Shown here piece by piece: positions 21,997 to 62,840 of a stretch of 64,000 bases of DNA. This DNA comes from Candidatus Bathyarchaeota archaeon BA2 (lineage in GTDB: Archaea; Thermoproteota; Bathyarchaeia; Bathyarchaeales; Bathyarchaeaceae). How positions within the stretch are numbered: position 1 is the first letter of the stretch; every line of letters starts with the position of its first letter. A program made the position numbers and the translations under genes. The stretch covers positions 89,873 to 153,872 of the forward strand of contig LIHK01000056.1 of assembly GCA_001399795.1 (NCBI GenBank), written 5' to 3'. The notes under the pieces were generated by a model, which saw nothing but the letters and a program-made list of their open reading frames with translations, did not search any database and was not told the DNA's origin.

Positions 21997-22031
21997 TAAA
22001 TTAAAATCTTAACTTTTTAATTATTACAGGT

Positions 22032-22268
22032 ATGACAAATAAAAGAATAACACCTGAAAAATGTACTAATTGCTTAACCTGTCAGCTTATATGCTCTTAT
22101 TTGCATACGCGCAGTTTTAATCCCTCAAAATCAAAGATTAAAATAAAGCCTGGATATTTCAAAAATGGCGCTTGGATATCTAACCAAATAAGTTTTGAAA
22201 ATTGTGTGAAAGGATGTGGGCTCTGTATTAATTATTGCGTGTATGGCGCTATAATGGTGGATGAGTGA
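22032..22268 (+). CDS. Small 4Fe-4S ferredoxin-like protein coupled to AOR
   Basis: CTNCLTCQLIC and CVKGCGLCINYC motifs; 4-nt overlap with the downstream AOR gene. Confidence 0.6.
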   Translation: MTNKRITPEKCTNCLTCQLICSYLHTRSFNPSKSKIKIKPGYFKNGAWISNQISFENCVKGCGLCINYCVYGAIMVDE

Positions 22269-45091: not shown

Positions 45092-45583
45092 CTACGGGGC
45101 TCCAAGAGACCATGCGGAGGGCCTTCCACTTCTCGGTCGTCCAGCAGCCACATCGAAAATGTCTTTTAAATCCATCGCTGCAGCTATGTTCCCTTTTATA
45201 TCACCTCTGCCACTAAAGAATGCTGACATTATATCTATTTCCCCGATCATAGACCTGGCGAGGTCGTAATACTTGAGCGTGAGTACTAAATCGGGCTCCT
45301 CACCCTCTGGTTCCCCTGGCTTCATCGAGACAGGGGCAAACATTAGGGTGAGAGGTTCGATTCCACGTTTCGGGTGCTCCGCCCTAATTACTATTAACCT
45401 AGGTGGAATTTGGGCTGCAATATCTAGCGCCTCTGGAGTTATCATAACTTTCCCGATAGTAAATCCATACATTAATTCTTCAAACATGGGTTCTTTTTCA
45501 TGTGCTTTCAGCCATTCTACTTTTTTCCACCATCCATCGGGTAACTCTTTATATTCAGCTTCTTCCGACGACAAACAAATCAC
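45092..45583 (-). CDS. SCP2-like domain protein
   Basis: DLVLTLKYYDLARSMIGEIDIMSAFFSGRGDIKGNIAAAMDLKDIF is a classical SCP2 C-terminal motif; divergent from mcrA. Confidence 0.65.
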   Translation of the reverse strand: MICLSSEEAEYKELPDGWWKKVEWLKAHEKEPMFEELMYGFTIGKVMITPEALDIAAQIPPRLIVIRAEHPKRGIEPLTLMFAPVSMKPGEPEGEEPDLVLTLKYYDLARSMIGEIDIMSAFFSGRGDIKGNIAAAMDLKDIFDVAAGRPRSGRPSAWSLGAP

Positions 45584-45676: not shown

Positions 45677-47500
45677 TTGGAGGAGAAAGAAGAAAGAAAA
45701 AAGTTTTATGACGATAAAGGTCAAATAACGGCTAGAGAGCGCGATTACGTAAGGGAACTCTACGCTGTATCCAAAAAGTTCCTTCCAACCGAAAGAAGAA
45801 GAGCAATCTACTCTAGATTAGAGAAGCAATTTGGCGCAGACCCCCTCAGCCTTGTGGATTCAGAAATGTATAAACGGGGTGGGTACAGGCAATCAAAACG
45901 TAAACAAGAATTCGTTAAGTCGGGTCGACAAATTGCCATAGAAAGAGGCATACCAGCCTATAATCGAGCTGTTGGAATTCCTCTAGGTCAAAGAATTCTT
46001 GAACCTTACGTAATCACTGGGACTGATATTACAGTAGAACAGGATGATACTCATCATGTTAACAATCCAGCCATCCAACAGATGGTGGACGACATCAAGA
46101 GAACCACAATAGTCAACATCGACATCGCCCACAGAATGCTTCAAGTAAGGGCTGGAAAAGAAGTAACTCCGGAAACAATCAACCTCTACTTAGAAACCCT
46201 TAATCATACTATGTGCGGTGGCGCCGTAGCCCAAGAACACATGTCCGAGATTAATCCCTTGCTGGTGAAAGACGCGTATGCTAAGGTGATTACTGGAAGC
46301 GACGAAATTAAAGACGCTCTAGACAGAAGGTACGTCATTGATATTGACAGACTTTTTCACCCAACCAGGGCGGAGCAACTGAAGAAAGCCCTTGGCAACA
46401 GCATCTGGGTGGTTCTTAGAACCCCGACAATAGCGATAAGGATGGCTGATGGTGACGAGGCTCATAGGTGGGCTGCTATGCAGAACACGATGGCTTTTAT
46501 CGGATCCTACGGCCTTTCGGGAGAACACGTAGTTTCCGACCTAGCCTACTCCTTCAAGCACGCCAGAGTTGTAAACATGGGTAACAAAATGTGGTACCAA
46601 AGAATGCGCGGAAGGAATGAGCCCGGCGGCTTCCCAGACGGCTACATATGCGACTTCATCCAATCCGAGCGAGACCTACCGGCAAGACCTTTCTTGGAAG
46701 TTTCAGAGGAGGATCCGGAAGAGGCTAAGAAATATTCCCGTGCTATGTACGAAGGTATCGGCGCAATCGCAGCAGTTCTTGACAATATGATATGGCTGGG
46801 ATTCTACATGAGTGGCGGTATAGGATTCTCAAACACGGTATCCGCTGCAGGTCTCGCAGGAGGCGTAATAGAAGATATCACAGAAGAGCTTATTGAAACG
46901 ACCCACAGATATATCCGAGGTATAAAGAAGGTACCACCAAAATGGGATATTGTCAGATTCATAGTCGATATGATCATACAGTACGTGATGGAATCTTATG
47001 AAAAGTTCCCAGCATTGTCCGAATTCCATTGGGGAGGAGCCCATAAGGTTTCAATCATAGGTAGTATGGGTGCTGGTGTGGCTTCACTTCTCACAGGTAG
47101 TTCAACAATGGGCATGTGGGCTGGCCACTATGCTATAGCGCTGGTTATGAAAGAGGGGTGGTTGAGAACTGGATGGGCTGGACAAGAAATCCAGGATCAC
47201 ATAGGTTTGCCGAGCCTATGTAGCTTTAGGCCTGAAGAAGGCAATTTCGCGGAATTAAGAGGTCTTAACTACCCGATGCAATCATTCAGCGCAGCCCATG
47301 GTTCTCTAAGGGATGCAGCTATATATGGAGCAATGATAGGAAGAGGTTCAGCATGGAGTGCCAGTCCAGTGGTTAAGGTAGCTTTCGCTGATCCGCATCT
47401 GGTCTTTGACTTCAAGAATCCAAGATTATGCATTGCGAAAGCGTGTATAAAGCAATTCATGCCAGCCGGAGAAAGGGGCCCGTCGCTCCCAGCGCATTAG
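45677..47500 (+). CDS. mcrA: Divergent methyl/alkyl-coenzyme M reductase alpha subunit (ACR-like McrA)
   Basis: 607 aa; GGYRQSKRKQEF, ERGIPAYN, GKEVTPETINLYLE, MRGRNEPGG, YMSGGIGFSNTVSAAG, ELRGLNYP, FMPAGERG align with McrA landmarks. TTG is the only start candidate after the in-frame stop at 45635. Confidence 0.9.
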   Translation: MEEKEERKKFYDDKGQITARERDYVRELYAVSKKFLPTERRRAIYSRLEKQFGADPLSLVDSEMYKRGGYRQSKRKQEFVKSGRQIAIERGIPAYNRAVGIPLGQRILEPYVITGTDITVEQDDTHHVNNPAIQQMVDDIKRTTIVNIDIAHRMLQVRAGKEVTPETINLYLETLNHTMCGGAVAQEHMSEINPLLVKDAYAKVITGSDEIKDALDRRYVIDIDRLFHPTRAEQLKKALGNSIWVVLRTPTIAIRMADGDEAHRWAAMQNTMAFIGSYGLSGEHVVSDLAYSFKHARVVNMGNKMWYQRMRGRNEPGGFPDGYICDFIQSERDLPARPFLEVSEEDPEEAKKYSRAMYEGIGAIAAVLDNMIWLGFYMSGGIGFSNTVSAAGLAGGVIEDITEELIETTHRYIRGIKKVPPKWDIVRFIVDMIIQYVMESYEKFPALSEFHWGGAHKVSIIGSMGAGVASLLTGSSTMGMWAGHYAIALVMKEGWLRTGWAGQEIQDHIGLPSLCSFRPEEGNFAELRGLNYPMQSFSAAHGSLRDAAIYGAMIGRGSAWSASPVVKVAFADPHLVFDFKNPRLCIAKACIKQFMPAGERGPSLPAH

Positions 47501-47685: not shown

Positions 47686-47810
47686 TTTTGCCATGAAAAA
47701 ATGCTTCCACCAAGAAACGTCCATGTTAGCCAATCCATGGCTAAAGGGAGAAGAATTGAGGCTATTTCATGCTCTTTTAAAGGCGCGAAGCGCCATGTAC
47801 GTTTAGTCGG
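47686..47810 (+). repeat. Dispersed structured repeat, copy 2 (long form)
   Basis: TTTTGCCATGAAAAAATGCTTCCACCAAGAAACGTCCATGTTAGCCAATCCATGGCTAAAGGGAGAAGAATTGAGGCTATTTCATGCTCTTTTAAAGGCGCGAAGCGCCATGTACGTTTAGTCGG; 186 nt downstream of mcrA. Confidence 0.7.
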
Positions 47811-48776: not shown

Positions 48777-50141
48777 TTATGTGAGCGTACTATGTCTAGT
48801 ATCCTTATAGAATTCCTTTAATATAATCGTGATTAACCTAATTTCTTCTCCTTGCTTTTTTACCTCTCGCAAAAATGTGTTGTATAGTTCATTTGTGATG
48901 GGTAGGGGTCGAGACCTAACCATTGAAGCTGTGAGCATTAAATCGAATGCTCTTGCCTCTGCAACCGTTAATTTATGTAAAACGCCGAGTTTACTGGAAT
49001 CTTTAATGAATACAGGGTTCTCCTCCCGAGATAATTGGACAACTTCCCCGGCTAGTAAGGTTCCCGGTAAAGGGTCCGCTATGCTTATAGAATAATCATC
49101 CAACATTAGTTCCTCCACCAACTCTTTGGTTTCAGCATAATCTTCGTCTGTCTCCCCAGGGTATCCAACGATGAAAGCCCCCGCCACCTCCAACTTGGCT
49201 TCGCGGGCTCTTTTAACTCCCTCCATAATTTTGTCAACCGTTATTCCTTTCCTCATTTTAGCAAGTATTCTGTTGCTCCCAGATTCCATTCCATAAATAA
49301 CAAATCCAATCGTATACTTTCTAACAGCTTTTAACATAGCTTCATTAACCATGTCTACCCTCAGGTCGGGAACTGAAAGATTGTAGGGTCCCGTTATTCG
49401 GCTAACTTCTTTTAGCATGGTGATAAATGCTTCATCATTTAATTTAGACCCCTTACAGCCATATTGATTTGATGTACCCCCAAAAAGCGCTATTTTTTGT
49501 GCTCCAGCTTCTACGAAGGCTTTTACCTCCACAACTATGTCATTTACTGGACGCGATCGGACTTCACGACCGAAGAAGCATGGAACTTGACAGAAACTAC
49601 AATTCCCTAAACAGCCCCTATGCGTCTCTATATAAACATTAGCCCCTCGAATGTTTTGCCGTCCAATATTTTGAGGAATCTCCGGTAAGGCTCGGCCATC
49701 TAAACTGGCTGGCTTCCGGGGATGGGTCTTAACCATCTCGTTATCATGTTTAAACGATATCCCGTTAACTTCCTCTAAATTCCTCTTGGTTTTGAGGGCT
49801 TCTATGAGTTCGGGGGCTGTTTCTTCTCCCTCACCAATTACAACCACATCTATTTCCGGCAAGATTCTGAAGACAAGTTCGGAAATTTGGCTTATGGGAC
49901 CGCCAACTATGATTAAAGGTTTCAAGCCTACTTTAAGCTTTGAAACTAACTCCCTTGCATTTAAGAGATGAGAAACGGAGGTTAAACTTAAACCGATAAT
50001 ATCCATGCCCATTACGTTTTGTGGGCGAAGATTATTGAATAAACTAATTTGGTGTCCTCCTTTTTTTAATATACCACCAATTAACATTGCTCCATAAGAG
50101 AATACTTCTGGTGAAATTATTGCAATTTTCACCCTTCCCAT
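48777..50141 (-). CDS. B12-binding-domain radical SAM enzyme (class B)
   Basis: N-terminal Rossmann-like B12 domain (KIAIISPE...LIIVGGP...VVIGEGE), then HRGCLGNCSFCQVP (CX3CX2C). Confidence 0.8.
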   Translation of the reverse strand: MGRVKIAIISPEVFSYGAMLIGGILKKGGHQISLFNNLRPQNVMGMDIIGLSLTSVSHLLNARELVSKLKVGLKPLIIVGGPISQISELVFRILPEIDVVVIGEGEETAPELIEALKTKRNLEEVNGISFKHDNEMVKTHPRKPASLDGRALPEIPQNIGRQNIRGANVYIETHRGCLGNCSFCQVPCFFGREVRSRPVNDIVVEVKAFVEAGAQKIALFGGTSNQYGCKGSKLNDEAFITMLKEVSRITGPYNLSVPDLRVDMVNEAMLKAVRKYTIGFVIYGMESGSNRILAKMRKGITVDKIMEGVKRAREAKLEVAGAFIVGYPGETDEDYAETKELVEELMLDDYSISIADPLPGTLLAGEVVQLSREENPVFIKDSSKLGVLHKLTVAEARAFDLMLTASMVRSRPLPITNELYNTFLREVKKQGEEIRLITIILKEFYKDTRHSTLT

Positions 50142-50214
50142 CTAAATCCCGCATTAACATTTTTTAAGTTCAAGGATTCCCTAATAAAATATGAGAGCTA
50201 CTGGCTGTTGAGTA

Positions 50215-51969
50215 TTGTCCCTTAAATGGGTGACTTTAATCATGACGCGTAGAGACACCGCAGTTCGGGTAGTTAATTTATCTAAAAGCTATACTCTCGA
50301 GTGTGGGGAGAAAGTTCGAGTTCTAGAAAATATCTCCTTTAATCTTTATCGAAACGAAATTTTAGGATTTATTGGCAGAAGTGGTGGGGGTAAAACAACA
50401 CTTATCCGAGTGCTTAGGGGTGTTGAGCCCTTTGATGAGGGGGAAATTTGGATTAACAATGTTCACCTCACTCCTAAGGCATCAGAAGATGATATAAGGA
50501 AAGTTCGCGAAACAACTGCCATACATCTTCAACGCTCTTTTGGCCTTTGGGCGGCAAGCACCCTAGAAAATGTGATGAGACGACTATATGCCTTAGAGAC
50601 AGGAGACGAAACTGCTCCACTCCCATACGACGAGTCCGACTATAGGAGACTTGAGGAGGAGAGTATGAGGATACTTAAAGCAGTAATGTTAGCTCAAAAA
50701 GCTAATCATCCCGCACATACGCTAAGCGGCGGGGAAAAGCAAAGACTGGTGTTGGCAAGGCAACTTGCAATGGCCAGCCGAAAGCCAATAACATTACTAT
50801 TAGACGAGCCTGTTACAATGTCTTGTCTGGCAACAAAACAAGTAGCCTTGGACTGGATTAAAAAAATACGGGATCAACTTGACGTATCCATAATTATTGC
50901 TTCCCATCTCCCCTCCATCCTCAAATATCTAGCGGATAGGGCGATTTGGCTGGAAAAGAAGATTATTGCAGTTGGCAAACCCAAGGAGATCATCGACAAA
51001 TTTCTCGCCCAAATGGAGGTACCCGTAAGTTTGAAAACCGTACCTAGATCTAAAAAGAAGATCATTAAGGTTCAAGACTTAACCCAAAGCTACCGTGCTG
51101 AAATATCTGAGGATTCATTTGAAATGAAAAACTTGAATTTTGAGGTTTACAATGGGGAAATCCTAGTTATAATTGGTCCATCTGGAGTAGGAAAAACTGT
51201 TTTAATTCGTTTACTCTCAGGATTGGAGCTTCCTGAAAAAGGTAAGGTACTTTATAAGCTGGAAAATAAAAGGGTGAACATCGCAAAATTAGGCTATGAA
51301 GCCGTGATGACCCGTAGAAGGATCGGCGTGGTTCATCAAGAATTAGATTTGGCCTACGGCGCTACAGTCAAGGATTTAGCTTTGGCGAGGCTTGGATTAA
51401 AGGGTGAAAAAGCGTTAATTATGGCCAAAGAAAAGGCGAAGGAGTTGGGGTTGAAGGAGGAGATTGTGGATTCTATCTATCGGTTGTGGGATTACCCAGA
51501 ACGGGAAATGATTAAAAAATTTGAGAAACTGGGATTAGAAAAAGAGGTGGTAAAGAGTCTTTTCCCAATTGCCCCCTGGGAAGCCGTATCAGAAATGTTT
51601 GAACCGATGTTTAGACTATTCAATTTATCACCCGATCTGTTAAATAGGAAATCTCACGAATTGTCGGGTGGGGAGAAAATAAGAGTTGCCATCGCTCTAG
51701 AACTCCTCTCTAGGCCAGAGGTCCTCTTTTTAGATGAACCTTTCGGTGACTTAGATCCGATAACTCTTAGAAACTTGTCAAACGTTCTAAAGTTTGTCAA
51801 CAATGAGTTTAATGTAACCATAGTCCTTGTGAGTCATCATGTGGATTTTGTTAAGGAAGTTGCCCATCGAGCAATACTCATGAGGGAAGGAGAAATAGTG
51901 GAAGAAGGAGACCCGATAAAACTTTGTGAACGCTTTATCGGGGAAAGCCAAGCTCAGTTTATTAACTAA
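50215..51969 (+). CDS. Double-ABC ATPase, component-A2-like paralog (lacks the Zn-ribbon insert)
   Basis: Two ABC cassettes: GRSGGGKTT / LSGGEKQRLVLARQL / LLLDEP and GPSGVGKTV / LSGGEKIRVAIALEL / LFLDEP. The A2-like IIASHLPSILKYLADRAIWLE is present. Confidence 0.65.
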   Translation: MSLKWVTLIMTRRDTAVRVVNLSKSYTLECGEKVRVLENISFNLYRNEILGFIGRSGGGKTTLIRVLRGVEPFDEGEIWINNVHLTPKASEDDIRKVRETTAIHLQRSFGLWAASTLENVMRRLYALETGDETAPLPYDESDYRRLEEESMRILKAVMLAQKANHPAHTLSGGEKQRLVLARQLAMASRKPITLLLDEPVTMSCLATKQVALDWIKKIRDQLDVSIIIASHLPSILKYLADRAIWLEKKIIAVGKPKEIIDKFLAQMEVPVSLKTVPRSKKKIIKVQDLTQSYRAEISEDSFEMKNLNFEVYNGEILVIIGPSGVGKTVLIRLLSGLELPEKGKVLYKLENKRVNIAKLGYEAVMTRRRIGVVHQELDLAYGATVKDLALARLGLKGEKALIMAKEKAKELGLKEEIVDSIYRLWDYPEREMIKKFEKLGLEKEVVKSLFPIAPWEAVSEMFEPMFRLFNLSPDLLNRKSHELSGGEKIRVAIALELLSRPEVLFLDEPFGDLDPITLRNLSNVLKFVNNEFNVTIVLVSHHVDFVKEVAHRAILMREGEIVEEGDPIKLCERFIGESQAQFIN

Positions 51970-52435
51970 ACTTGTAGTTTAGTCAACTTCTAGGGTTTCG
52001 GGAGAATTGCGTTTTCCGAAATTCTGCAATTATTGGAACTATTTTTCAAAAGGGATTGATGAAATGGAGACCGCCTAATCTATTAGAGAGTAGTTATGGC
52101 TCTTTTAAAAACATCTCGTATATGTTGATGTGTTGTCGCCTTTAGTTCATCAAAAGCTTCTTTCATGTAGTAGTTACTTACTTATAGAAGAATGGCATTT
52201 CTCTTCAACTCAGTGCTTTCAGGTGTCTCAAGCAGTTCAATAACACAATACAAGTTGTCGTGTTCTTGTATTGTTTTAAATCTTCTAGTATTTTTTGCTC
52301 TGCCAACTTCTTTATTTGTTGAGCCCAGTGCAATCCCTTGGATTTTAGTTGGTGTTTTTCGAGGTCTTCTAATCCTCAAGCCCCTATTCCTTCTGCATCT
52401 AAAGTCATTTGGACACCTAATTTTTAGCAGAAGAC

Positions 52436-52687
52436 TTACACTTTCTTTAGATAAGGATTTGCACATTTTGGGCATTCAGGCTCTCTTAAAGCCTCTTCGG
52501 GGTCTCCCATCCACGCACACCTGGGACATTGTAGCTTTCCGTCTCTCCTTTTTAGAATCCTGAAAGTCTTGATGTGACCTGTGAGGCAATCAGGGCAAAC
52601 TGGAACAAAAGCGGCTTCTTTGTCGTCTCCCTTCCATCCGCAGGTGCATTCCAACAACAGGTTCTCCACCCTCTTACTTTTTACCAA
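52436..52687 (-). CDS. Small multi-zinc-ribbon protein
   Basis: 83 aa with CTC..., CPDC, CPRC, CPKC pairs; overlaps the stop of the upstream QueG-like gene by 14 nt. Confidence 0.5.
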   Translation of the reverse strand: MVKSKRVENLLLECTCGWKGDDKEAAFVPVCPDCLTGHIKTFRILKRRDGKLQCPRCAWMGDPEEALREPECPKCANPYLKKV

Positions 52688-53525
52688 CAGGGCAAACTTC
52701 TGCGCAAATTTGACAATACGGAAAGTCTCCCTTTTCTCTTTGCCACTTCAGGTATTCTGTTATGAGTGGATATTTAGCGCTATACCTTGGGAGCACTATC
52801 AACGCTGTAGGTCTTGCATTTATCCAGTCACTAGGAGGAATTTCAATCTTAGAAAGACGAACTAATCCTTGAATTCCCCATAGATGTCTATTCAAGTCAA
52901 AATTGTAAGGGGGCGCCTTTTCTCTACTCAGGGCCTGAGGTGGACAGGCCTCCACGCATCGGAAGCACTTTCTGCAGGTTTCTTCATATATTTTTCCAGC
53001 CAACCGGGGACCATCCGGCTTTAGTGGGGCATTAGTGATTATGCTGGTTAATTCAATCCTTGGTCCCCACTCTGGAGTTAATAAGAAGTTGTTGGCACCT
53101 ATGTCCCCCAGACCAGCTATCTGACCTACATACCTATGTGAAAGCATGCAGCTAACCCAACGTCTTTCATCTACAGAAATGTTGGGGTCGAGAGGCACGG
53201 CGCTGTAACCTTTCTTCTCCAAAAACTTAGTTAGGATCATGGATTTCTCGCGTAGCTCATCTTGCAATGTTTGTTTTACAGTGGCAAAGGTAGACAGGAC
53301 TATGAATATGTCTTCTTTTGATTGTTCGAAAGCACCTTCTGGATACTTAATGCATAATGATATTATGGACTTAGCGTCCTTTAGGATTGAGAAAGGTGAT
53401 GTGAAGAACATCGGGGTTTTATCTGCTCTTTCGGCCTCTGCAACACCAACTTTGTCAAGTCCTATGCTCAGTGCGTTTTGTTTAACTTCACTTGTTAATA
53501 TTTCATCATATGTCAAAATTGTCAC
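52674..53525 (-). CDS. QueG / reductive-dehalogenase-family 4Fe-4S protein
   Basis: SHRYVGQIAGLGDIGANNFLLTPEWGPRIELTSIITNAPLKPD, CRKCFRCVEACP, CQICAEVCP. Confidence 0.55.
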   Translation of the reverse strand: MTILTYDEILTSEVKQNALSIGLDKVGVAEAERADKTPMFFTSPFSILKDAKSIISLCIKYPEGAFEQSKEDIFIVLSTFATVKQTLQDELREKSMILTKFLEKKGYSAVPLDPNISVDERRWVSCMLSHRYVGQIAGLGDIGANNFLLTPEWGPRIELTSIITNAPLKPDGPRLAGKIYEETCRKCFRCVEACPPQALSREKAPPYNFDLNRHLWGIQGLVRLSKIEIPPSDWINARPTALIVLPRYSAKYPLITEYLKWQREKGDFPYCQICAEVCPVGKK

Positions 53526-53526
53526 C

Positions 53527-55119
53527 TCAAAATCCAGTTGAAATCAAAGCCTTTTTCTCTGTTTCCACCATGATGTTTACAACATCTTCCGGGTCGCCAA
53601 TAGTTTCTATTTTACCATTTCTCATGTAAGCAGCTCGATCGCACGCTATCCTGATGAAGTCAATATCATGGCTTATGATTAAATATGTTTGCCCTAAAGC
53701 GTCTCTCGCGTTTCTAATGCTCCTCGCAATCTCAACCCGCGTTATTGGATCCGCAGTGCCAGTCGGCTCATCCAACAGCACGATCTTAGGTTCCTTCATA
53801 AGAGAACGGGCGATACATACTCTATGTCTTTCTCCCTCACTAATCTGGTCTGGATATTTGTAAAGCAAGTATTCTATTTCTTTATCTGTAAAGTTTACCC
53901 CCCTCAAAACCTCGTAGGCCTTTTTGGTCTTTTGTTCTTCTGGCAAGGGTTCTTCCACAGCGCCAACAAGGTTCTCTAGAATTATTCTTCCGGCGTGCAA
54001 CGTGTACTCTTGGTGTAGAATATCCATTTTTGATGCAATCATTCCTCTTTCATCAGGTCCAGGAATACTCATGTCAAACCATTCTTCTCCTCTCTTCACC
54101 AGTATTTTGCCAGTGGTTGTAGGCTTTATGCCCATCATCATGTGCGCCAACGTAGTCTTTCCGCTTCCACTAAGACCCACAATTCCGAATATTTCACCTT
54201 CATATATTTTAAGATCAACGCCGTCCACTGCCTTCACGAGACCTCTATCGAATGTGTAATACCATTTCTTTACACCCTCACACTCCATTATCGGGTTGGT
54301 TCCTCTATACCTTTCAACTTGCACTTTTTCCACTTTCTCCATAAAAGCATTGTAGACATCTTCGGATTTTCCCATCACAGTTAACTCTCCGTTTTCTAGT
54401 AGGGCAGCCTCTTCAGATAACGCTTTAATAGCTTCTGGCCAATGCGAGGTTATGACAAGAGTTATGTGATCCCTATTGACGGCTTCCCTAATCACTTCAT
54501 GCACCACTTCGCTGGTGATCGGGTCCAAGGTGCCTGTGGGCTCGTCTGCAAGGAAAAGCAACGGATTCCTCGCTAAGCACATGGAAAATATGACTCTTTG
54601 CTTTTCGCCTCCGGAGAGGTCTCTTCCCAGATGAAGAAGCCGATGATCCAGCTTGACATGTGATATAAGCTCCGCAGCCCTCATGTCAATTTCCCCCTCG
54701 GGGTATCCGACGCTGATCAAAATTCTTCTGACGTTTTCTATGGCTGGAAATTCGCTGTATAGAGAGAAGCCTCGTTGAGGCATGATCGCGATCCTGTCAT
54801 GTAGCGTCAAGGACAGTCTAGTTTGCTTCTTCAACTCCTCCCAGTAATCAACCTCTCTAAACTCCATCGTCGTGGAGCACTTGGGGCATGGTTCCTCCTT
54901 CTTGGAAGGATACTCGACCCAGTGACAGTTAGGGCAATATGAAAGCCTGAAGATAATTTGTCCGTATGTCGGTTCATATTCAAGGATTCCCCTAATTGAC
55001 TGCATGATAATAGATTTCCCGTGACCGCTTTTGCCTAGTAGTCCAAAGGTTCCCCCTTCCCTAATTGTGAATGATATGTTTTTGATTATGGGGAGCCCTC
55101 TGACGAACTCTTTTGTCAA
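53527..55119 (-). CDS. atwA: Methyl-coenzyme M reductase system component A2 (double-ABC ATPase)
   Basis: GKSGHGKSIIMQSIRGILEYEPTYGQIIF, Zn-ribbon insert CPNC...CPKC, DLSGGEKQRV, FLADEPTGTLDP, ITSHWPEAI, and a second cassette GLSGSGKTT. Confidence 0.8.
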   Translation of the reverse strand: MTKEFVRGLPIIKNISFTIREGGTFGLLGKSGHGKSIIMQSIRGILEYEPTYGQIIFRLSYCPNCHWVEYPSKKEEPCPKCSTTMEFREVDYWEELKKQTRLSLTLHDRIAIMPQRGFSLYSEFPAIENVRRILISVGYPEGEIDMRAAELISHVKLDHRLLHLGRDLSGGEKQRVIFSMCLARNPLLFLADEPTGTLDPITSEVVHEVIREAVNRDHITLVITSHWPEAIKALSEEAALLENGELTVMGKSEDVYNAFMEKVEKVQVERYRGTNPIMECEGVKKWYYTFDRGLVKAVDGVDLKIYEGEIFGIVGLSGSGKTTLAHMMMGIKPTTTGKILVKRGEEWFDMSIPGPDERGMIASKMDILHQEYTLHAGRIILENLVGAVEEPLPEEQKTKKAYEVLRGVNFTDKEIEYLLYKYPDQISEGERHRVCIARSLMKEPKIVLLDEPTGTADPITRVEIARSIRNARDALGQTYLIISHDIDFIRIACDRAAYMRNGKIETIGDPEDVVNIMVETEKKALISTGF

Positions 55120-55549
55120 ATTTTTAACTATAAGAAAATTGTCAGCCAGATTTACTCACCGAGTATTATTAGACCTTCACTATATAAATTATTTTTGAGA
55201 ATTTAGAGAGGCTGAAAAGTTTGAGAGACTGCAAGTTTTTCCATTAGCCGCATCATGAGGATGTGAATACAAACCTAGTTGAAGATGAAGTGTAGACGCT
55301 GAACCAATTCTGAGGTCTGTTTAGGTCGTCGTGCCCGGCTCTATAAGTCTTAGAAGTTCATGATGCAACTTGTATTCTTCATGCTTTCTGTTATTAACGT
55401 TTATCATGCCAAAGCTCAACTTATCCGAGCCTTCCAAGATTTCTTATTGCCAGCTCAGATTCTGGCATAAATTCCTTTGTAATTTCAGCGTAAACATTAA
55501 ATAATTTGAGAAATTATAATTTTTTGTTTTAGCGAGAAAGGGACGAGTA

Positions 55550-56941
55550 TTGTCAAACCTGTCTTTAAAATATAAAGATACATTAGACCTATACGATGAT
55601 CATTCCAATTGTATTGCAAAAGAAGTGCCGCTGCAAGCTCTCTCACCGTTATATAACCCCTATATGAGGGAGGTTTTAAATCTTTTCAAAAGAACAGCTT
55701 TTATTGACCTAGCCAAGCTGGAGCAATATGTAAAGTCTGGAAGAGCAGGCTGGGAAACAGTCGTTGGGCAAGATGAGATTCAAATGCCTTGGTACGGTAG
55801 GGACCTGCCTATGGTTGAGCGTTCAGAGGAAATAGCTGAGAGAATAAAAGAGAAAATCGCAAAATTCGATGACGGAGAGGAGGAGCTTGTGAAGCCTGTA
55901 GCAGGTGGCAAGCTAATCATTGTTAAGATACCGAGAAGAATGATGGAAGTTTCAGCCAGCCGCGACCCACCGCTCACATGGACGATGGTGGCTTTATGTC
56001 AAGCTATATCTGAAACTTTCAATTTGAATCCTGAAACTGACCCGGATGGCTGCAACATGGTGAGAGGAGCCATCTTTGGAAGGTACCCTCAATCCCCTGA
56101 GTTGCCTCCTGGTGGACCTGTTTTCGGACTTTTGAGGCAAAGCAACATCGTGGACGGTTTGGGGAGCGGGTTTAGAGGAATAATGGTGAATCACATTGTG
56201 GCCCTAGTTAATAAAAGAACTATGGACGGTGTTGCTTTAGCCACAATTTTGGAACAAGGTGCACAGTGGGAGATGGGTAACGTGTTGGGATGGTTTGAAA
56301 GATATAATCTCCTTGCGTCAGCCTACCAAGGCTTCAACGCAAACAATCTTGTTCTAGACCTCGTTCTGGAGAACAGGGAGGGAACTATAGGAGACGTTGC
56401 ACGTAGCACGGTGAAAAGGGCTGTAGAGGACGGGGTCATAAAAGTCAAAAAAACTTTTCCATCGGGGTACAAGGTCTATAGTACGAGTGACTATCCTCTT
56501 TGGAACGCATATGGTTGCGCTGGAGTGCTAGCTGCGGTAATAGTTAACGTTGGAGCGAGTAGAGCTGCACAAAGTGTTTCAACCGTTACAGGTTATTTTG
56601 GCGACCACTTGATTTTTGAGACTGGGGGGTTACCTGACCCTGACACTGGCAGAATTGAAGGCACAGGCATAGGCTATGCGTTCTACACCCATTCCATATA
56701 TGGCGGAGCGGGTCCTGGTGCGTATACTTTAGACCATGTTGTCGTAAGGAGTACCTCAGGTTTCTTAACTCCATGTGTCGTTGCAGGTATGTGTCTCGAT
56801 TCTGGAACTCAACTTTTCTCTCCTGAAATGACCTCCAGTGCTTTGTTCAAGATAAGAGATCACATGCCGTTACTCAACGAGCCGTTGAAAAAAGTGGCTG
56901 AGGCAGCTGAAAAGGTTAAAGGAGAATTAACAAAGGCATAG
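55550..56941 (+). CDS. mcrB: Methyl/alkyl-coenzyme M reductase beta subunit
   Basis: YKDTLDLYDD at the N-terminus; HSIYGGAGPGAYTLDHVVVRSTSGFLTPCVVAGMCLDSGTQLFSPE parallels the canonical HSIYGGGGPG...CVAAA..DAGTQMFSPE; TTG start. Confidence 0.9.
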   Translation: MSNLSLKYKDTLDLYDDHSNCIAKEVPLQALSPLYNPYMREVLNLFKRTAFIDLAKLEQYVKSGRAGWETVVGQDEIQMPWYGRDLPMVERSEEIAERIKEKIAKFDDGEEELVKPVAGGKLIIVKIPRRMMEVSASRDPPLTWTMVALCQAISETFNLNPETDPDGCNMVRGAIFGRYPQSPELPPGGPVFGLLRQSNIVDGLGSGFRGIMVNHIVALVNKRTMDGVALATILEQGAQWEMGNVLGWFERYNLLASAYQGFNANNLVLDLVLENREGTIGDVARSTVKRAVEDGVIKVKKTFPSGYKVYSTSDYPLWNAYGCAGVLAAVIVNVGASRAAQSVSTVTGYFGDHLIFETGGLPDPDTGRIEGTGIGYAFYTHSIYGGAGPGAYTLDHVVVRSTSGFLTPCVVAGMCLDSGTQLFSPEMTSSALFKIRDHMPLLNEPLKKVAEAAEKVKGELTKA

Positions 56942-56942
56942 T

Positions 56943-57761
56943 TTGAAGGTGATGCACGTGGCAAGTGAAAAGAGAGAGGAAAAAAGTGAATTCGAGCCTC
57001 AAATCTACCCTGGACAGGATGAGGTGTCAGAAAGAAGGAGAAAGCTTTGGGATAAGCGTCGACGCCTAACAAAGTATCGAGACGTACCAGACGATGACAT
57101 AACCCGCCTTCTGGGTCATAGGCCGGTTGGAGCACTATATGTAAGTGTCCATCCACCTCTTGATGAACTTATAGAACCATACGACCCGATAAAAAGTCTA
57201 GTTGCTCCGACACCAGGGGCGAGAGCAGGGGATAGGATAAGATTTGCTCAGTTTTCAGATAGTTTTTGGCATCCTCCAATAACTCCCTATGCTAGGCAAA
57301 GACTCTATTTTAATAGACTCAGAGGTGTCGATGTTGTCACCTATAGCGGCAGAACAATGTTAGAGATGAGGGAGCGGGATTTAGAAACAGCTGTAAAGCC
57401 TCTAATCGAAACCGAAGTATTCAACCCAGCTAGAACAAGTTTGAAAGGAATAACTATTCACGGACACTCTTTAAGGCTTGATGAAGATGGCCTAATGTTC
57501 GACGCTAGGCGAAGATTCGTTTACGATAAAGAGACAGGCGAGGTAGTTTACATTAAGGATCAATTCGGCAAAGTTTTAGACAGGCCAGTGCCAGTCGGGC
57601 GCCCCCCCTCAGAAGAGGAATGTAGAAAACTGAGTATAACCTACAGTTGGGATACCCGACAATTTAAATCCAGAACCGAAGTAATAGAGCTAATCTCAAG
57701 AGTTGCAAATATGAGGGTATTGGCAGGATTCAATCCCGAATCAATCAACGAGGAGATTTAA
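56943..57761 (+). CDS. mcrG: Methyl/alkyl-coenzyme M reductase gamma subunit
   Basis: PQIYPGQDEVSERRRK, FAQFSDSFWHPP, MLEMRERDLE, GHSLRLDEDGLMFD align with McrG. The true start may be ATG 56952 or GTG 56958. Confidence 0.9.
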   Translation: MKVMHVASEKREEKSEFEPQIYPGQDEVSERRRKLWDKRRRLTKYRDVPDDDITRLLGHRPVGALYVSVHPPLDELIEPYDPIKSLVAPTPGARAGDRIRFAQFSDSFWHPPITPYARQRLYFNRLRGVDVVTYSGRTMLEMRERDLETAVKPLIETEVFNPARTSLKGITIHGHSLRLDEDGLMFDARRRFVYDKETGEVVYIKDQFGKVLDRPVPVGRPPSEEECRKLSITYSWDTRQFKSRTEVIELISRVANMRVLAGFNPESINEEI

Positions 57762-58096
57762 ACCTGAGGTTATGGCGCTCCCAAACTAACCAATATTATT
57801 AAAGCTCCCTTTGGATCGTATACATTTTTTCTTTATCTCGGAACACGTTAGTTTGCGATCCTGTAACCTGTACATTAAGTCCGAAGTTAAATGTAAGCTA
57901 ACCAATTTTTATCTCCTGATTCCAAGTCCTTGCTTAGAGATAGATGAATTAACGACTTCTTTAAGTAAATATCTAGTTTCCAAAGCATGCCGCATTTACA
58001 ACAACTATCTGTGGTGAAGATGAAAACCCGCCTGCTAGTTCTTCTAGACTTAGGTTAACAAACTTTTTTGCATGCCAATTTTTAATTAGTACAGCT

Positions 58097-58225
58097 ATGA
58101 CAAATAAAAGAATAACACCCGAAAAATGTACTAATTGCTTAACCTGTCAACTTATATGCTCTTATCTACATACACGCAGTTTTAACCCCTCAAAATTAAG
58201 GATTAAGATTAAAATAACGCTCTAA
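58097..58225 (+). pseudogene. Truncated copy (42 codons) of the AOR-coupled ferredoxin-like gene
   Basis: MTNKRITPEKCTNCLTCQLICSYLHTRSFNPSK is identical to the first 33 aa of ORF 22032. There are 6 nucleotide differences in about 100 nt, all synonymous, followed by divergence and a stop. Confidence 0.6.
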
Positions 58226-58365
58226 AATATGAATATTGCCGTTTCATGGCTTAAACTAACCCCTTTTCAGCCAAATAAAGCTTAAGAAAATTTTACGCCA
58301 AACCCCTGAAGGTGGAAACTTTAAATAAGAAAATGGGCAGCTCAGAACTTTGGAGAGTAGAGTGA

Positions 58366-59187
58366 ATGGAGCTGAAACTTCTTCGAGTAGACCTTTCGAC
58401 AGAAATCATCAAAGAAGAGAAAGTAGACGAAGCAACAACCAAGAAGTTTGTGGGAGGCCGTGGAGTCGGAGTAAAGATCCTTTTCGATGAACTTAAACCA
58501 GGAACAGACCCATTAGGTCCAGAAAACAAGCTGATCTTCATGACGGGTCCGGCTACAGGAACAGCATTTCCAGCGAGTGGAAGATTCCACGTAATTACCA
58601 AATCCCCCCTCACAGGCAGGATCGGGGATACAAACTGCGGTGGCAACTGGGGTCCAGAACTGAGATTCGCTGGCTTTGAGGGTATCATTTTTGAAGGAAA
58701 GGCGAAGGAACCTGTTTACCTTTGGGTTCACGAAGGCGAAGCCGAACTGCGAAGCGCTAGAAAATATTGGGGTAAGGGGGTCTGGGACACTGAAGATGGG
58801 ATTTGTGAAGAACTCGGGGAACCCAAGGCAAAGATAGCGAGCATAGGGCCAGCAGGCGAGAACCTAGTTTTATCCGCAGCCATTATGAACGACAAACACA
58901 GAGCGGCTGGCAGAACGGCTGCAGGAGCTGTAATGGGTTCCAAAAACTTGAAAGCTATAGCAGTCCATGGAACAGCCAAACCCCCCGTGGCTGACCCAGA
59001 AGGATTACGAGAGACTGTAAAGAGAATTCTAGAAAAACTTAAAGAGAACATGGTCACTGGCGAATCGCTTCCAACCTATGGGACCTCTGCCCTAATTAAT
59101 GTTATCAATGCATTTGGCATCTTTCCGACTCGTAACTTCCAAACTGGAGTATTCCCTACGGCTGAGAAGATAAGTGGTGAAACAATA
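58366..59187 (+). pseudogene. AOR-family gene, N-terminal fragment (codons 1-274), interrupted by an insertion
   Basis: LLRVDLS..., GGRGVGVKILFDE, GPATGT, AGAVMGSKNLKAIAVHGT, ...FPTAEKISGETI, then out-of-family sequence and a stop. Confidence 0.8.
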
Positions 59188-61496
59188 AATTTCATGTTTT
59201 CCATAAATCTATTTTGAAATCTCCAATTAGCAAAAGCGGTGAACATGGATTGGTAAGTATGTACCACTCAAAACACGTACTCCGCTCCTAAAAACAAAAG
59301 GATAAAATAACGGTTATACCGACTATTTGGTTCTCTAGGGGTCTAGAATTGTTTGGTTACATGGGAAAGATTTTAAGAGTTGACTTGTCAAAATCAAAAA
59401 TAACCAAAGAATTTCCTGATGAGAACACTCTTAAGATGTTTTTGGGCGGAAGCGGACTAGCAACCAAATATCTCTTTGATGAAGTTAAAAAGGGAACAGA
59501 CCCCTTGGGCCCAGAAAACAAGCTAATATTCACGACTGGACCTTTAACTGGAACGCCGTCACCTACTACTGGAAGATATACGGTAGTCGCCAAATCTCCC
59601 CTTACTGGTTTTTGGGGGCAGGCAAACTCAGGTGGTTTTTGGGGAGCAACTTTCAAAAGGTCGGGTTTTGACGGAGTAATATTTGAAGGTATCTCACCGA
59701 AACCAGTCTACCTTGTTACCGATGACGGGAAGGCCGAGCTTAAAGATGCAAAAGACCTCTGGGGTAAGAACACTTCAGAAACTACAAGATTGATCAAAGA
59801 GGAGCTTGGAGAGAATTTCCGTGTCACTTGTATAGGCGTTGCTGGAGAGAATCTAGTCAAATACGCTGCTATCATAAATGACGCTGATAGACCAAACTGG
59901 GGCAGAGCGGCTGGAAGATGCGGAATGGGAACCGTAATGGGTTCGAAACGCTTGAAAGCTATCGCTTCAAGAGGGACAATAAAGATCGAAGTGGCAAAGG
60001 AAGATGCTTACAGGGAAGAGGCCAAAAAAAGATACAACTGGGTTAAGGAGGAAGTAGAGAAAACAGCCACTCTTTCATACTTCTTTAGGAGGTATGGAAC
60101 GGCCGTTGCCCTTGATTTCGTGAACATTCGGGGTGGACTTGCAACCAGAAATTGGCAAACCGGCGTCTTTCAAGGTGCAGACAATATAAACGGACCTGCA
60201 ATTGTAGAAAAGATTCTTACAGACAAAAAAGCTTGCTTTGCGTGTCCACTCTCTTGTGGAAGAATATCTGAAATTAAAACAGGACCATATGCAAGCAAAG
60301 GAGAAGGCCCGGAATGGCAAGCTCTTGCAGCTTTTGGTAGTAAGTGTGGAATCGACAATCTAGAAGCAATTACCTACGGGCAATTTCTATGCAATGAATA
60401 TGGTCTCGATTTTATTTCTGCTGGAAATACAATAGCTTTTGCTATGGAATGCTATGAGAAAGGAGTATTGACCAAAAAAGACACCGACGGATTGGAGCTT
60501 AAATTTGCCGATTCTGATGTCATGATAGAACTTGTGCACAAAATAGCTAAAAGGGAAGGCGTTGGAAATCTACTAGCCGAAGGAACAAAGATCGTCTCAG
60601 AAAAACTGGATAAAGGAACCGAAAAATTTGCTATGCATGTTAAAGGTCTAGAGCTGCCAGGTTATGATCCCAGAGCTGCCAAGATAGCTGGGCTAGCCTA
60701 TGCTACTGCAAATCGAGGAGGTTGCCACACGACGGCTTACATAGCAGTCTTGGTTTTTATTGGAATACCCTCCTTTCTTGAAGAAATCGATGTTGGAGAT
60801 ATACTTCAGGAAATTCCTGAAACTGCTAAGGTTGTCAAAGATCTGGAGGATGTGCTTGCCGTTTTTGATGCGATGGGGGGATGCAAATTTATGGGAATGG
60901 TTTCAACCACAGAGGACTGGGCAACTTTGATATCGAATCTTACCGGCTGGGAATTTACTACAAAGGACTTTAGAAGAACTGGTGAGAGAATTTACAATCT
61001 TGAAAGAGCCTTTAACATAAGAGAGGGATTAACTAGAGCCGATGATACTCTTCCAAAGCGTTTACTAGAGGAACCAATGCCCGAAGGCCCAGCTGAAGGA
61101 CAGGTAGTAAATCTAAATCCACTCTTGGATGCTTATTACGAGTTTCGTGGATGGGACAAGAAAACTGGCAAACCAACTCCTGAGAAGCTTAAAGAACTTG
61201 GACTAGATGAGGTAATTAAAGAGATTTACTAGCGATAAAACCTAAACCCAAACACCTGATTATTCCTTGCCCGAAATAAAAGAAAACTTAAGAATAGCTA
61301 AGATGAAGGAAAAGGGAGAAATAAGTGGTTAAACTAGTTTTCTAAACTGCTAGAAGTCCACTTTCTCCCCCTTGAACGCACAAACAACCAACACCCTAGC
61401 TTATACACAAAAGGTTATTGTTTGAAGTTGGCATTTAAGCCTTAAGTATAAAGTTCGGAGGTTTTAACCATGGAAAATATGCACACCTAGACAATA
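59188..61496. other. 2309-bp inserted segment carrying an intact AOR paralog, flanked by 6-bp direct repeat ACAATA
   Basis: ACAATA lies at 59182-59187 and 61491-61496. Excising the segment fuses ...ISGETI to AKTVLVKNKPCWGCTIACGR in frame. Imperfect subterminal inverted repeat CAT(G/A)TTTTCCAT. No transposase gene. Confidence 0.6.
59349..61232 (+). CDS. Aldehyde:ferredoxin oxidoreductase (tungstopterin AOR family), intact
   Basis: 627 aa; KILRVDLS, GGSGLATKYLFDE, GPLTGT, CFACPLSCGR, GLELPGYDPRAAKIAGLAYATANRGGCH, DAYYEFRGWDKKTGKPT. Confidence 0.9.
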   Translation: MFGYMGKILRVDLSKSKITKEFPDENTLKMFLGGSGLATKYLFDEVKKGTDPLGPENKLIFTTGPLTGTPSPTTGRYTVVAKSPLTGFWGQANSGGFWGATFKRSGFDGVIFEGISPKPVYLVTDDGKAELKDAKDLWGKNTSETTRLIKEELGENFRVTCIGVAGENLVKYAAIINDADRPNWGRAAGRCGMGTVMGSKRLKAIASRGTIKIEVAKEDAYREEAKKRYNWVKEEVEKTATLSYFFRRYGTAVALDFVNIRGGLATRNWQTGVFQGADNINGPAIVEKILTDKKACFACPLSCGRISEIKTGPYASKGEGPEWQALAAFGSKCGIDNLEAITYGQFLCNEYGLDFISAGNTIAFAMECYEKGVLTKKDTDGLELKFADSDVMIELVHKIAKREGVGNLLAEGTKIVSEKLDKGTEKFAMHVKGLELPGYDPRAAKIAGLAYATANRGGCHTTAYIAVLVFIGIPSFLEEIDVGDILQEIPETAKVVKDLEDVLAVFDAMGGCKFMGMVSTTEDWATLISNLTGWEFTTKDFRRTGERIYNLERAFNIREGLTRADDTLPKRLLEEPMPEGPAEGQVVNLNPLLDAYYEFRGWDKKTGKPTPEKLKELGLDEVIKEIY

Positions 61497-62463
61497 GCGA
61501 AAACCGTTTTAGTTAAGAATAAGCCCTGCTGGGGTTGCACCATAGCCTGTGGACGAGTTAGCCGCGTGGTCAAGCCGCCTTATCAAGTTGAGGGCGAAGG
61601 TCCTGAGTACGAAACCGACTGGTCCCTGGGAGCTCAATGCGGTATCGACGATCTGGACGCCATAACTAAAGCTCACAATATTTGCGATGAAATGGGCATT
61701 GATCCAATATCCTTTGGAAACACCGTAGGTTGTGCAATGGAACTTTATGAGAAGGGAAAAATACCCAAGGAAAAACTCTACGGACTTGAATTAAAGTTTG
61801 GTAATTCTCAAGCAATAGTGGAACTGGCTTGGAGAACTGCCTACCGCATTGGTTTTGGCAACGACATAGCGTTAGGGGCTAAACGTTTAGCAGAGAAGTA
61901 TGGAGCTCCTGAGATCGCCATGCACGTTAAAGGCTTGGAACTCCCTGCCTACGACCCACGAGGCGCCAAGGGGTACGGTTTGGCGTATGCCACATCTAAC
62001 CGTGGAGGATGTCACCTAAGAGCCTACATGATCGCCCCAGAAATTCTAGGTATTCCAGAGAAGCTCGACCCGCTCAAGACAGAAGGGAAGGCATCATGGG
62101 TTAAAACGCTCCAAGACGTCTGCTCAATATGCGACTCGCTTGTTCGTATGCAAATTCTTGGCCTTTGCGCTAGGGGCTGAAGACCTCATCAATCCCATTA
62201 CGGGATGGAATTGGTCCACAGACGACCTCTTAAAGACCGGTGACCGCATCTACACGCTTGAGCGCATGTTCATCAACCGAGAGGGCTTCGACCGAAAAGA
62301 CGACACACTCCCACTGAGGTTACTGAAGGAACCCATGCCTGAAGGTCCCGTCAAAGGGCATGTTGTTGAGCTAGAAAAGATGCTTGATGAATACTACGAG
62401 GCCAGAGGCTGGAAAAACGGCAAGCCCACAAAAGAGAAACTAGAGGAGCTAGAGTTAACTTAA
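61491..62463 (+). pseudogene. AOR-family gene, C-terminal fragment (continuation of 58366-59187) with an additional 1-nt frameshift near 62144
   Basis: The frame opens exactly at 61491 after a TAG: TIAKTVLVKNKPCWGCTIACGRVSRVVKPPYQVEGEGPEYE...GLELPAYDPRGAKGYGLAYATSNRGGCH. DSLV then shifts frame into CKFLAFALGAEDL...EYYEARGWKNGKPT. Confidence 0.8.
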
Positions 62464-62498
62464 TCTTCTTTTCTTTCCTCCTTTTTTGGTGACTCGAA

Positions 62499-62759
62499 AT
62501 GCCTAAAGTTACTGTTCGGGCGTTTGCCACCTTGAACGGACTTCTCGGATCAAAAACCATGGATGTTTTCACCCTTGGCTCAACAATTAGGGAGCTGATA
62601 GACCTTATTGCGACAGAGTATAACCCACAATTCAAGGATCGGTTAATTGACCCAAAAAAAGGCGAGGTTCATAAATTCTACAGAATACTCATTAACGGTC
62701 GGGATATTGATTTTCTGGATATATTGGAAACAAAAATGAAAGAGGGCAACATTTATTAG
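62499..62759 (+). CDS. MoaD/ThiS-like beta-grasp protein, apparently C-terminally truncated (no terminal Gly-Gly)
   Basis: MPKVTVRAFATLNGLLGSKTMDV...ILINGRDIDFLDILETKMKEGNIY*. The stop codon lies inside repeat copy 3. Confidence 0.55.
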   Translation: MPKVTVRAFATLNGLLGSKTMDVFTLGSTIRELIDLIATEYNPQFKDRLIDPKKGEVHKFYRILINGRDIDFLDILETKMKEGNIY

Positions 62760-62840
62760 CCATGAATTGGCTAAAGGGAGAGGAATTGAAGGTTTTTCAT
62801 GCTCCTTTTAAGGGCGCGAAGCGTCATGTACGTTTAGTCG
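62745..62840 (+). repeat. Dispersed structured repeat, copy 3 (short form)
   Basis: ..TTAGCCATGAATTGGCTAAAGGGAGAGGAATTGAAGGTTTTTCATGCTCCTTTTAAGGGCGCGAAGCGTCATGTACGTTTAGTCG; overlaps the 3' end of the MoaD-like ORF. Confidence 0.7.

Follow-up and report, generated by a model that had tools for sequence, protein, structure and literature searches.

The stretch of DNA analysed here, referred to throughout as the window, is 64,000 nucleotides of a 154,546-bp contig of Candidatus Bathyarchaeota archaeon BA2, reportedly the archaeon of Evans 2015; the McrA, McrB and intact aldehyde oxidoreductase (AOR) that it encodes are identical to KPV61791, KPV61799 and KPV61802 of that organism. Our subject is the group of AOR-family genes that follows its mcrB-mcrG pair (Table 1). 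An initial annotation, made from the letters alone, had placed a ferredoxin-like remnant, an intact AOR gene and a MoaD-like gene behind mcrG, and domain searches and DNA alignment recovered each of them there; the ferredoxin and AOR pair that it listed at 22032-24211 was likewise confirmed with Pfam. It had also described a split AOR ahead of the intact one. The split gene is real, but it does not precede its neighbour: its N-terminal half lies upstream and its C-terminal half downstream of the intact AOR, and the two genes are nested.

Table 1. Positions and properties of the features discussed in the text, numbered from the first letter of the window
Feature	Position	Strand	Properties
Intact ferredoxin	22032-22268	+	78 aa, 2x[4Fe-4S]-type; Pfam Fer4 families; overlaps the start of the next gene
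AOR-22k	22265-24211	+	648 aa, divergent AOR-family; AFOR_N 1.7e-61, AFOR_C 2.2e-58
mcrA/acrA	45677-47500	+	607 aa; MCR_alpha_N 2.9e-100, MCR_alpha 8.1e-20
mcrB/acrB	55550-56941	+	463 aa; Pfam MCR_beta_N and MCR_beta (MCR_beta E=1.7e-95)
mcrG/acrG	56943-57761	+	272 aa from TTG (269 aa in other annotations); Pfam MCR_gamma E=8.7e-91
First part of post-mcrG spacer	57762-58096	+	collinear with the closest relative as far as ~57769 (blastn and alignment with L003)
Ferredoxin remnant	58097-58225	+	42 codons, one CxxCxxCxxxC motif, then stop
AOR pseudogene, N-terminal 274 codons	58366-59187	+	reading frame continues into the insert, stop at 59217; AFOR_N E=3.6e-82
Insertion, 2,309 bp, with intact AOR	59188-61496	+	direct repeat ACAATA at 59182-59187 and 61491-61496
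Intact AOR	59349-61232	+	627 aa from TTG (623 aa from ATG 59361); AFOR_N 2.8e-79, AFOR_C 4.6e-144
Synthetase-gene relic	61255-61284	+	30 nt, 93% to L085 4693-4722 inside the acyl-CoA synthetase gene; blastn E=1.8e-6 (small database); weak, short match
AOR pseudogene, C-terminal part	61497-62463	+	1-nt frameshift at 62145; AFOR_C in two frames
MoaD/ThiS-like open reading frame (ORF)	62499-62759	+	86 aa; Pfam ThiS E=8e-4, TIGR01687 E=1.4e-10
~87-nt repeat	62754-62839	+	two hairpins (TTAGCCATGAATTGGCTAA, GGCGCGAAGCGCC); overlaps the end of the MoaD-like ORF

An AOR gene interrupted by another

The N-terminal half of the broken gene ends ...KISGETI at the hexamer ACAATA, which recurs in the same codon phase at the far end of the insertion and is followed there by AKTVLVKNKPCWGC. 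With the insert removed the halves join in frame, as ...ISGETI/AKTVLVKNKPCWGC..., and deletion of C62145 restores the reading ...CDSLVVCKFLAFAL... across the C-terminal fragments, which stand in the window as 61566-62180 (AFOR_C 1.4e-81) and 62140-62463 (AFOR_C 7.6e-39). Reconstructed in this way, by removal of the 2,309-bp insert and the extra C62145, the AOR is 595 aa long, spans AFOR_N and AFOR_C at full length, as it does in no other form, and is up to 83% identical, over 100% coverage, to 598-aa proteins of Bathyarchaeia, in which the junction is free of gaps (P0260, for example, reads SGETIAKTILVKNKACWGC). To the intact AOR inside it the fragments are 46-58% identical, the N-terminal one 50%. 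The split AOR is a single gene interrupted by an insertion whose cargo is the intact AOR. That the fragments are relics of two separate flanking genes was considered and rejected, because they meet at the same codon and together rebuild a gap-free, full-length orthologue. In this respect the BA2 locus gives a clean example of an AOR gene that carries a second one as an insertion.

The insertion contains no transposase ORF, a repeat search around the AOR locus found no long terminal repeats, and alignment of its ends gave only a 12-nt imperfect terminal inverted repeat (CATGTTTTCCAT / CATATTTTCCAT). With nothing beyond this and the 6-bp direct repeat, the element was not called a transposon.

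The disrupted gene was of the classical type. Its reconstruction scores 664-695 bits against AORs of the Pyrococcus furiosus type (PDB 1aor, 9mqx), versus 342, and aligned to 1aor it retains the cluster cysteines (CWGCTIAC...VVCKF) together with EGPE and RGGCH. Because dN/dS between the pseudogene and its orthologues is still 0.05-0.07, its inactivation is probably recent relative to the divergence of those orthologues. Orthologues at 82-83% identity form AOR+ThiS pairs on two contigs (L089, L090) that carry no mcr genes and on which the neighbours are aminotransferases, peptidases and oligopeptide transporters; identity to a Ferroglobus placidus AOR is 68%. A homologous MoaD-like ORF follows the BA2 gene at the same spacing as in these pairs; BA2 differs from them in that its AOR is disrupted and, in the assembly of the window, its small partner lacks the Gly-Gly.

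This MoaD-like ORF falls below the curated cut-offs (20.4 against 22.5 bits for ThiS; 41.5 against 49.5 bits for TIGR01687), and is by eye clearly homologous to the 95-aa ThiS proteins of L089 and L090, which end ...PPVGGG. In the window its C-terminus reads ...KMKEGNIY before the stop, without Gly-Gly, because the end of the frame runs into the ~87-nt repeat. An alternative assembly (L001, described below) gives an ORF that ends ...DTVAFFSPAGGG, with Gly-Gly, but has a frameshift in an A-run upstream. The predicted gene may be either intact or broken. Further copies of the repeat lie at 21350-21436 (minus strand, 94% identity), near the 22-kb ferredoxin and AOR, and at 47738-47809 (plus strand, 90%), 238 nt after mcrA. 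Rfam at gathering thresholds matched nothing in the 64 kb, this repeat included, and among the loci fetched for comparison the repeat occurs only in the re-assemblies of BA2.

The intact AOR and its native cassette

The intact AOR covers positions 1-199 of 199 of the AFOR_N profile (PF02730) and 5-385 of 385 of AFOR_C (PF01314), and scores 514 bits against the P. furiosus AOR (1aor), 366 against FOR (1b25), 236 against WOR5 and 226 against BamB, with GAPOR NCBIfam models reaching only 30-33 bits. It is thus of the same AOR type as the pseudogene, and clearly more divergent than the pseudogene is. Aligned to 1aor, whose cluster ligands are C288, C291, C295 and C494, it reads CFACPLSC...GGCKF, and so keeps CxxCxxxC and the distal cysteine, as well as EGPE (Glu313) and RGGCH (His448). 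The domain layout, the cluster cysteines and both motifs are shared by P. furiosus AOR, by the solved AORs 9mqx, 9g7j and 8c0z, and by both the intact and the reconstructed BA2 proteins; BA2 stands apart in having one copy as a pseudogene interrupted by the other. These alignments demonstrate that every predicted cofactor and catalytic motif is present in the intact gene, which at a dN/dS of 0.14-0.18 against its orthologues is seen to be under purifying selection. The product is most likely a tungsten- and ferredoxin-dependent aldehyde:acid oxidoreductase, expressed, we infer, from its own promoter. When the gene (59361-61232) was compared with two orthologues (L085, L086), dN on the BA2 branch was about twice that between the orthologues themselves (dN/dS 0.14-0.18 versus 0.07), which suggests that constraint may have been relaxed or altered after relocation.

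Relatives of the intact AOR form a clade with 78-83% identity on contigs of Bathyarchaeia type and 68-76% in Hermod-, Hod-, Heimdall-, Thor-, Odin- and Nezhaarchaeota. On four contigs (L085-L088, among them GCA_052744655.1 of the Bathycorpusculaceae) the orthologue, with 77-83% DNA identity to the BA2 gene, heads a cassette in which it is followed by an AMP-binding acyl-CoA synthetase, an iron-type alcohol dehydrogenase (Fe-ADH) and an SCP2 protein; thiolase and acyl-CoA dehydrogenase genes lie near the cassette, and there are no mcr genes on these contigs. The BA2 insert, in contrast, has none of the three partners. DNA homology to L085 runs from 59225, 124 nt 5' of the BA2 start codon, to 26 nt past the stop, and the short match to the interior of the synthetase gene (Table 1) lies just beyond the BA2 stop codon. 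Because the homology takes in the upstream region and gives out directly after the gene, the intact AOR would have been relocated together with the region upstream of it, and its partners lost.

The mcrG junction and its conservation

By sequence, the BA2 mcrBG pair falls in the alkyl-coenzyme M reductase (ACR) clade, among the enzymes of multi-carbon alkane oxidisers, rather than with canonical methyl-coenzyme M reductase (MCR). Among ACR-type relatives McrG is 96% identical to that of the JGI contig Ga0314860_0001364 (L003/L084), 83% to that of BA1, 77-79% to Hadarchaeota, 68-69% to Methanoliparia and 62-66% to Helarchaeota; identity to Methanomethylicia and methanogens is 48-55%. McrB, 92% identical in the JGI relative, is divergent, because its TIGR03257 score of 415 bits lies under the equivalog cut-off of 516. 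Also present in the window is mcrA, split off from mcrBG and 8 kb upstream of mcrB. The whole 64 kb may be described as an mcr island, with mcrC, mcrD, component A2, several methanogenesis-marker DUFs and two FAD-oxidase/CCG pairs.

The JGI contig, the closest relative at hand, is collinear with BA2 over 52432-57769 at ~89% DNA identity. It breaks off ~8 nt beyond the stop codon of mcrG, where the relative goes on with an mcrA gene; a further mcrA at the other end of that contig shares a 90%-identity cluster with BA2 McrA. The order in the relative is therefore mcrA1...mcrBG-mcrA2, and in BA2 the AOR locus occupies the site of mcrA2. The window holds only the upstream copy, whose protein is 79% identical to the relative's downstream one. 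In BA1 the order is mcrB-mcrG-mcrA, and in Hadarchaeota contigs mcrA-mcrB-mcrG-(paralogue of u490, an ORF described below)-mcrA. More generally, two mcrA genes flank mcrBG in close relatives, as mcrA...mcrB-mcrG-(x)-mcrA (L003/L084, L005, L006, L009, L093).

Between mcrG and the AOR pseudogene lie 605 nt, and the intact AOR starts 1.6 kb past mcrG. A blastx comparison of this spacer and of the region past the MoaD-like ORF with McrA, the u490 paralogue and the BA1 neighbours found no relic of mcrA. The spacer contains four runs of at least five T (57825-57830, a T6 run 64 nt past the mcrG stop; 57906-57910; 58064-58069; 58079-58083), which are compatible with archaeal termination after mcrG and no proof of it. 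Farther on comes the ferredoxin remnant, which gives no Pfam match by itself. Over 39 aa it encodes a sequence with 95% identity to the N-terminal end of the intact 22-kb ferredoxin, and the DNA of 58079-58212 is a copy of 22014-22147 at 91% identity; the intact ferredoxin gene is the evident source of the remnant.

How common such an adjacency is was gauged from 80 species-representative mcrG loci in GTDB (42 ACR-type, 38 MCR-type), taken together with as much as 10 kb of flanking sequence in either direction. Within that distance an AOR accompanies mcrG in only two of the 80, namely Ca. Methanoliparum (L010) and a metagenome-assembled genome (MAG) of Halobacteriota from a tar biofilm (L019). 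Both are of the ACR type, and the difference (2/42 against 0/38) is not significant (Fisher p=0.49). In a neighbour-joining tree the mcr-proximal AORs are polyphyletic and fall in different clades.

Recruitment, rearrangement or assembly artefact

How alkyl-CoM becomes acyl-CoA is still an unsettled point of anaerobic alkane oxidation, and AOR is one published candidate for it. Hahn et al. 2020 (PMC7175092) proposed AOR for the conversion of ethyl to acetyl, with aor genes near, or sharing operons with, genes that belong to the methanogenesis pathway, much as the initial annotation had put it for ethane oxidisers, and in the scheme of Benito Merino et al. 2024 (PMC10811742) hexadecyl-CoM is converted 'possibly via Aor' in Ca. 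Cerberiarchaeum oleivorans; the same authors described acyl-CoA synthetases and alcohol dehydrogenases in the Hadarchaeon. The idea of an AOR for alkyl-CoM is thus already in print, while literature searches found no paper on the BA2 AOR locus itself. BA2 resembles Ca. Ethanoperedens, Ca. Argoarchaeum and Ca. Cerberiarchaeum oleivorans in having AOR-family genes close to mcr or methanogenesis genes in an ACR-type archaeon; it differs in an adjacency that its nearest relatives do not have, in the pairing of a pseudogene with an inserted paralogue, and in AOR clades that are widespread outside mcr lineages. Of the linkage on which the proposal of Hahn et al. draws, the BA2 locus shows closeness to mcr without conservation among related ACR-bearing genomes.

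The initial annotation had taken the abutting locus to fit this idea. In its fullest form the intact AOR, alone or together with the broken one, would have been recruited beside mcrBG to take alkyl-CoM to acyl-CoA, oxidising an aldehyde to an acid that an acyl-CoA synthetase then activates, and would be co-expressed with ACR. The hypothesis is published for ethane and hexadecane oxidisers; the cassette of the orthologues, with its acyl-CoA synthetase, Fe-ADH and SCP2 and with thiolase and acyl-CoA dehydrogenase nearby, would suit a path from alcohol through aldehyde and acid to acyl-CoA; other AORs lie near ACR genes in L084, L010, L019 and L093; and the mcr island of the window holds two intact AORs. 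The comparative evidence nevertheless makes recruitment improbable, and for the abutting AORs it is of the kind that the initial annotation had itself named as refuting its reading. Adjacency is missing from the sister genome (L003) and from BA1, and AORs near mcrG are not enriched among the 80 loci. Both abutting AORs belong to clades common among archaea not known to carry mcr, and on contigs without mcr each has conserved neighbours of its own: the broken gene is paired with ThiS, and the intact one with acyl-CoA synthetase, Fe-ADH and SCP2. The intact gene came to lie within another AOR without its cassette partners, its upstream region moved with it, and T-runs stand in the spacer after mcrG. 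What survives of the idea is a part: the enzymes of the cassette suit the alcohol-to-acyl-CoA sequence, and relatives of the 22-kb AOR occur in Hadarchaeota ACR clusters. The intact, putative enzyme may have a role in converting aldehydes to fatty acids downstream of ACR.

We consider it likely that the abutting AOR locus is instead a recent, lineage-specific rearrangement, and neither a conserved extension of the mcr/acr operon nor a partner of it. The backbone would be a cassette of a classical P. furiosus-type AOR and a MoaD/ThiS-like gene, found elsewhere in neighbourhoods of amino-acid and peptide metabolism. In BA2 the AOR of this cassette would have been inactivated by the 2.3-kb insertion, with the 6-bp duplication at its bounds, and by one frameshift. 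The insertion would have carried the second, intact AOR with ~124 nt of its native upstream region, the cassette partners being lost, and the position next to mcrG would have arisen in the BA2 lineage, where the closest relative has its second mcrA. Because the adjacency would have arisen within that lineage, position beside mcrG is no evidence for alkyl-CoM processing; and because the abutting AORs are probably a recent rearrangement of housekeeping-type cassettes, the gene order of BA2 gives no support to the AOR idea and should not be counted for it. More specific leads are the cassette of AOR, acyl-CoA synthetase, alcohol dehydrogenase and SCP2, as a candidate route through free intermediates, and the divergent AOR subfamily syntenic with ACR in Hadarchaeota that is described below.

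Several observations weigh against this reading, above all that AORs of different clades recur near ACR genes. The sister contig has an unrelated AOR+ThiS pair and an acyl-CoA synthetase between the ABC ATPase of its mcrA1-proximal genes and Fer4-atwA-mcrBG; in Ca. Methanoliparum (L010) the distance from acrA to an AOR is 6 kb; the tar-biofilm Halobacteriota MAG (L019) has two AORs at 4 kb from acrB; a gene of the 22-kb type sits inside Hadarchaeota ACR clusters; and aor genes stand near methanogenesis genes in Ethanoperedens and Argoarchaeum (Hahn et al. 2020, PMC7175092). Repeated, independent recruitment of AORs near ACR could be a sign of selection for clustering. The ACAATA repeat, too, could be microhomology instead of a true target-site duplication. 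Finally, the arrangement recurs in two further assemblies, L001 (GCA_002509245.1) and L002 (an ENA assembly of run SRR2132206), but all three, that of the window included, seem to go back to the reads of one sample.

This apparent common origin bears also on whether the nested AORs and the mcrG-AOR junction are real, or a chimeric joining of paralogous AOR loci or co-existing strains in the metagenome. The assemblies disagree around the ~87-nt repeat (62746-62794) and in the A-run inside the MoaD-like gene, and the 87-nt repeat and a 134-nt one tie the locus to regions at 21-22 kb and 47.7 kb. All three assemblies, however, are 99.9% identical across 49361-62746, with both insertion junctions and the mcrG junction included; the paralogues share only ~70% DNA identity over short stretches, too low for k-mer jumps; and the junctions lie in unique non-coding sequence, with an exact in-frame reconstruction and a 6-bp duplication. 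An artefact is accordingly very hard to credit, and a genuine rearrangement in the BA2 lineage is the reading we retain.

A divergent ferredoxin-linked AOR at 22 kb

The second intact AOR of the window, AOR-22k, overlaps the ferredoxin gene before it. It reaches at most ~205 bits against any solved structure of the family, and because of this low ceiling cannot be assigned to the AOR, FOR, WOR5, BamB or GAPOR class. The cluster cysteines are kept (CNACTLAC...GTCIV), while FTGFY stands at the EGPE site and PRPHHGG at the NRGGCH site. The same departure runs through its relatives: in at least 132 full-length representatives of 50%-identity clusters among the best 150 matches, RGGCH occurs in 0 of the 132 listed, E-x-P-E in 6 and CxxCxxxC in 91. 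The subfamily is, on these motif counts, a large uncharacterised clade of predicted AOR-family proteins without the canonical Glu/His catalytic motifs.

Relatives with 57-58% identity occur on contigs of Hadarchaeota type (L093, L095, L097, L107), the first of which shares 86-91% DNA identity with named MAGs of that group. There they close a conserved block, mcrB-mcrG-u490'-mcrA-SCP2...u152-u490-SCP2-AOR. In BA2 the u152-u490-SCP2 module lies directly upstream of mcrA, and AOR-22k is 21 kb from the module and 31 kb from mcrB.

The ORFs that define the module, u152 (43088-43546, plus strand, 152 aa) and u490 (43560-45032, plus strand, 490 aa), have no Pfam domain. Both are kept beside ACR genes in Hadarchaeota, with 35% and 65-68% identity respectively (L093 16367-18319; L095-L097, L107), and a 43-45% paralogue of u490 stands between mcrG and the second mcrA in that group.

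It may be asked whether the ferredoxin and AOR-22k pair, and not the abutting locus, is the real ACR-linked candidate, having perhaps passed between Bathyarchaeia and Hadarchaeota together with the ACR island and performing non-canonical chemistry on an ACR-derived intermediate. The conserved Hadarchaeota gene order, the matching module next to BA2 mcrA, and a subfamily that has shed E-x-P-E and RGGCH while often keeping the cluster motif would all fit. Distance within BA2 speaks against it. Apart from BA2 a single lineage shows the linkage; its ACR is sister to that of BA2 and close to it in sequence, and what is seen may therefore be one arrangement, inherited or transferred. Members of the subfamily at 36-51% identity, which are more distant, have no mcr genes on their short contigs, the 51% member (L110) lying at a contig end; P0368, a representative without locus context, is at 55% about as close to AOR-22k; and no gene of this type lies within 10 kb of mcrG in the loci of Helarchaeota, Syntrophoarchaeum, Alkanophaga or Methanoliparia. 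We regard this proposal as rather unlikely; of the two loci, even so, the pair is a better candidate partner of ACR than the abutting AORs. Still more doubtful is the specific form in which ferredoxin and AOR-22k would be a dedicated accessory of a long-chain alkyl-CoM reductase, co-inherited or co-transferred with the ACR island (u152, u490, SCP2) and oxidising the CoM-bound alkyl group.

Other features of the mcr island

An SCP2-like ORF of ~150-200 aa is found directly 3' of mcrA in most ACR-type loci, including those of Hadarchaeota, Helarchaeota, Archaeoglobi, Alkanophaga and BA1 (L004-L009, L013, L016, L017, L029, L033, L034, L037-L039, L091), and in none of ~38 canonical MCR loci. BA2 carries it upstream of mcrA, in inverted orientation (45092-45583, minus strand). 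A literature search on ACR and SCP2 together yielded no paper.

At 30051-32680 and 40354-43007 there are two adjacent pairs of a CCG/Fer4 protein (HdrD/GlcF-like) and a FAD_binding_4 protein (GlcD-like), with a third CCG protein at 13680-14564; the sister contig has one more pair of the CCG/FAD_binding_4 type adjoining its AOR. Beside component A2 (atwA, 53527-55119, minus strand) lies a 283-aa Fe-S protein (52674-53525, minus strand) with weak similarity to reductive dehalogenases and QueG, homologues of which (44-51%) occur in the ACR-type loci of Methanoliparum (L010), L018, L023 and L028.

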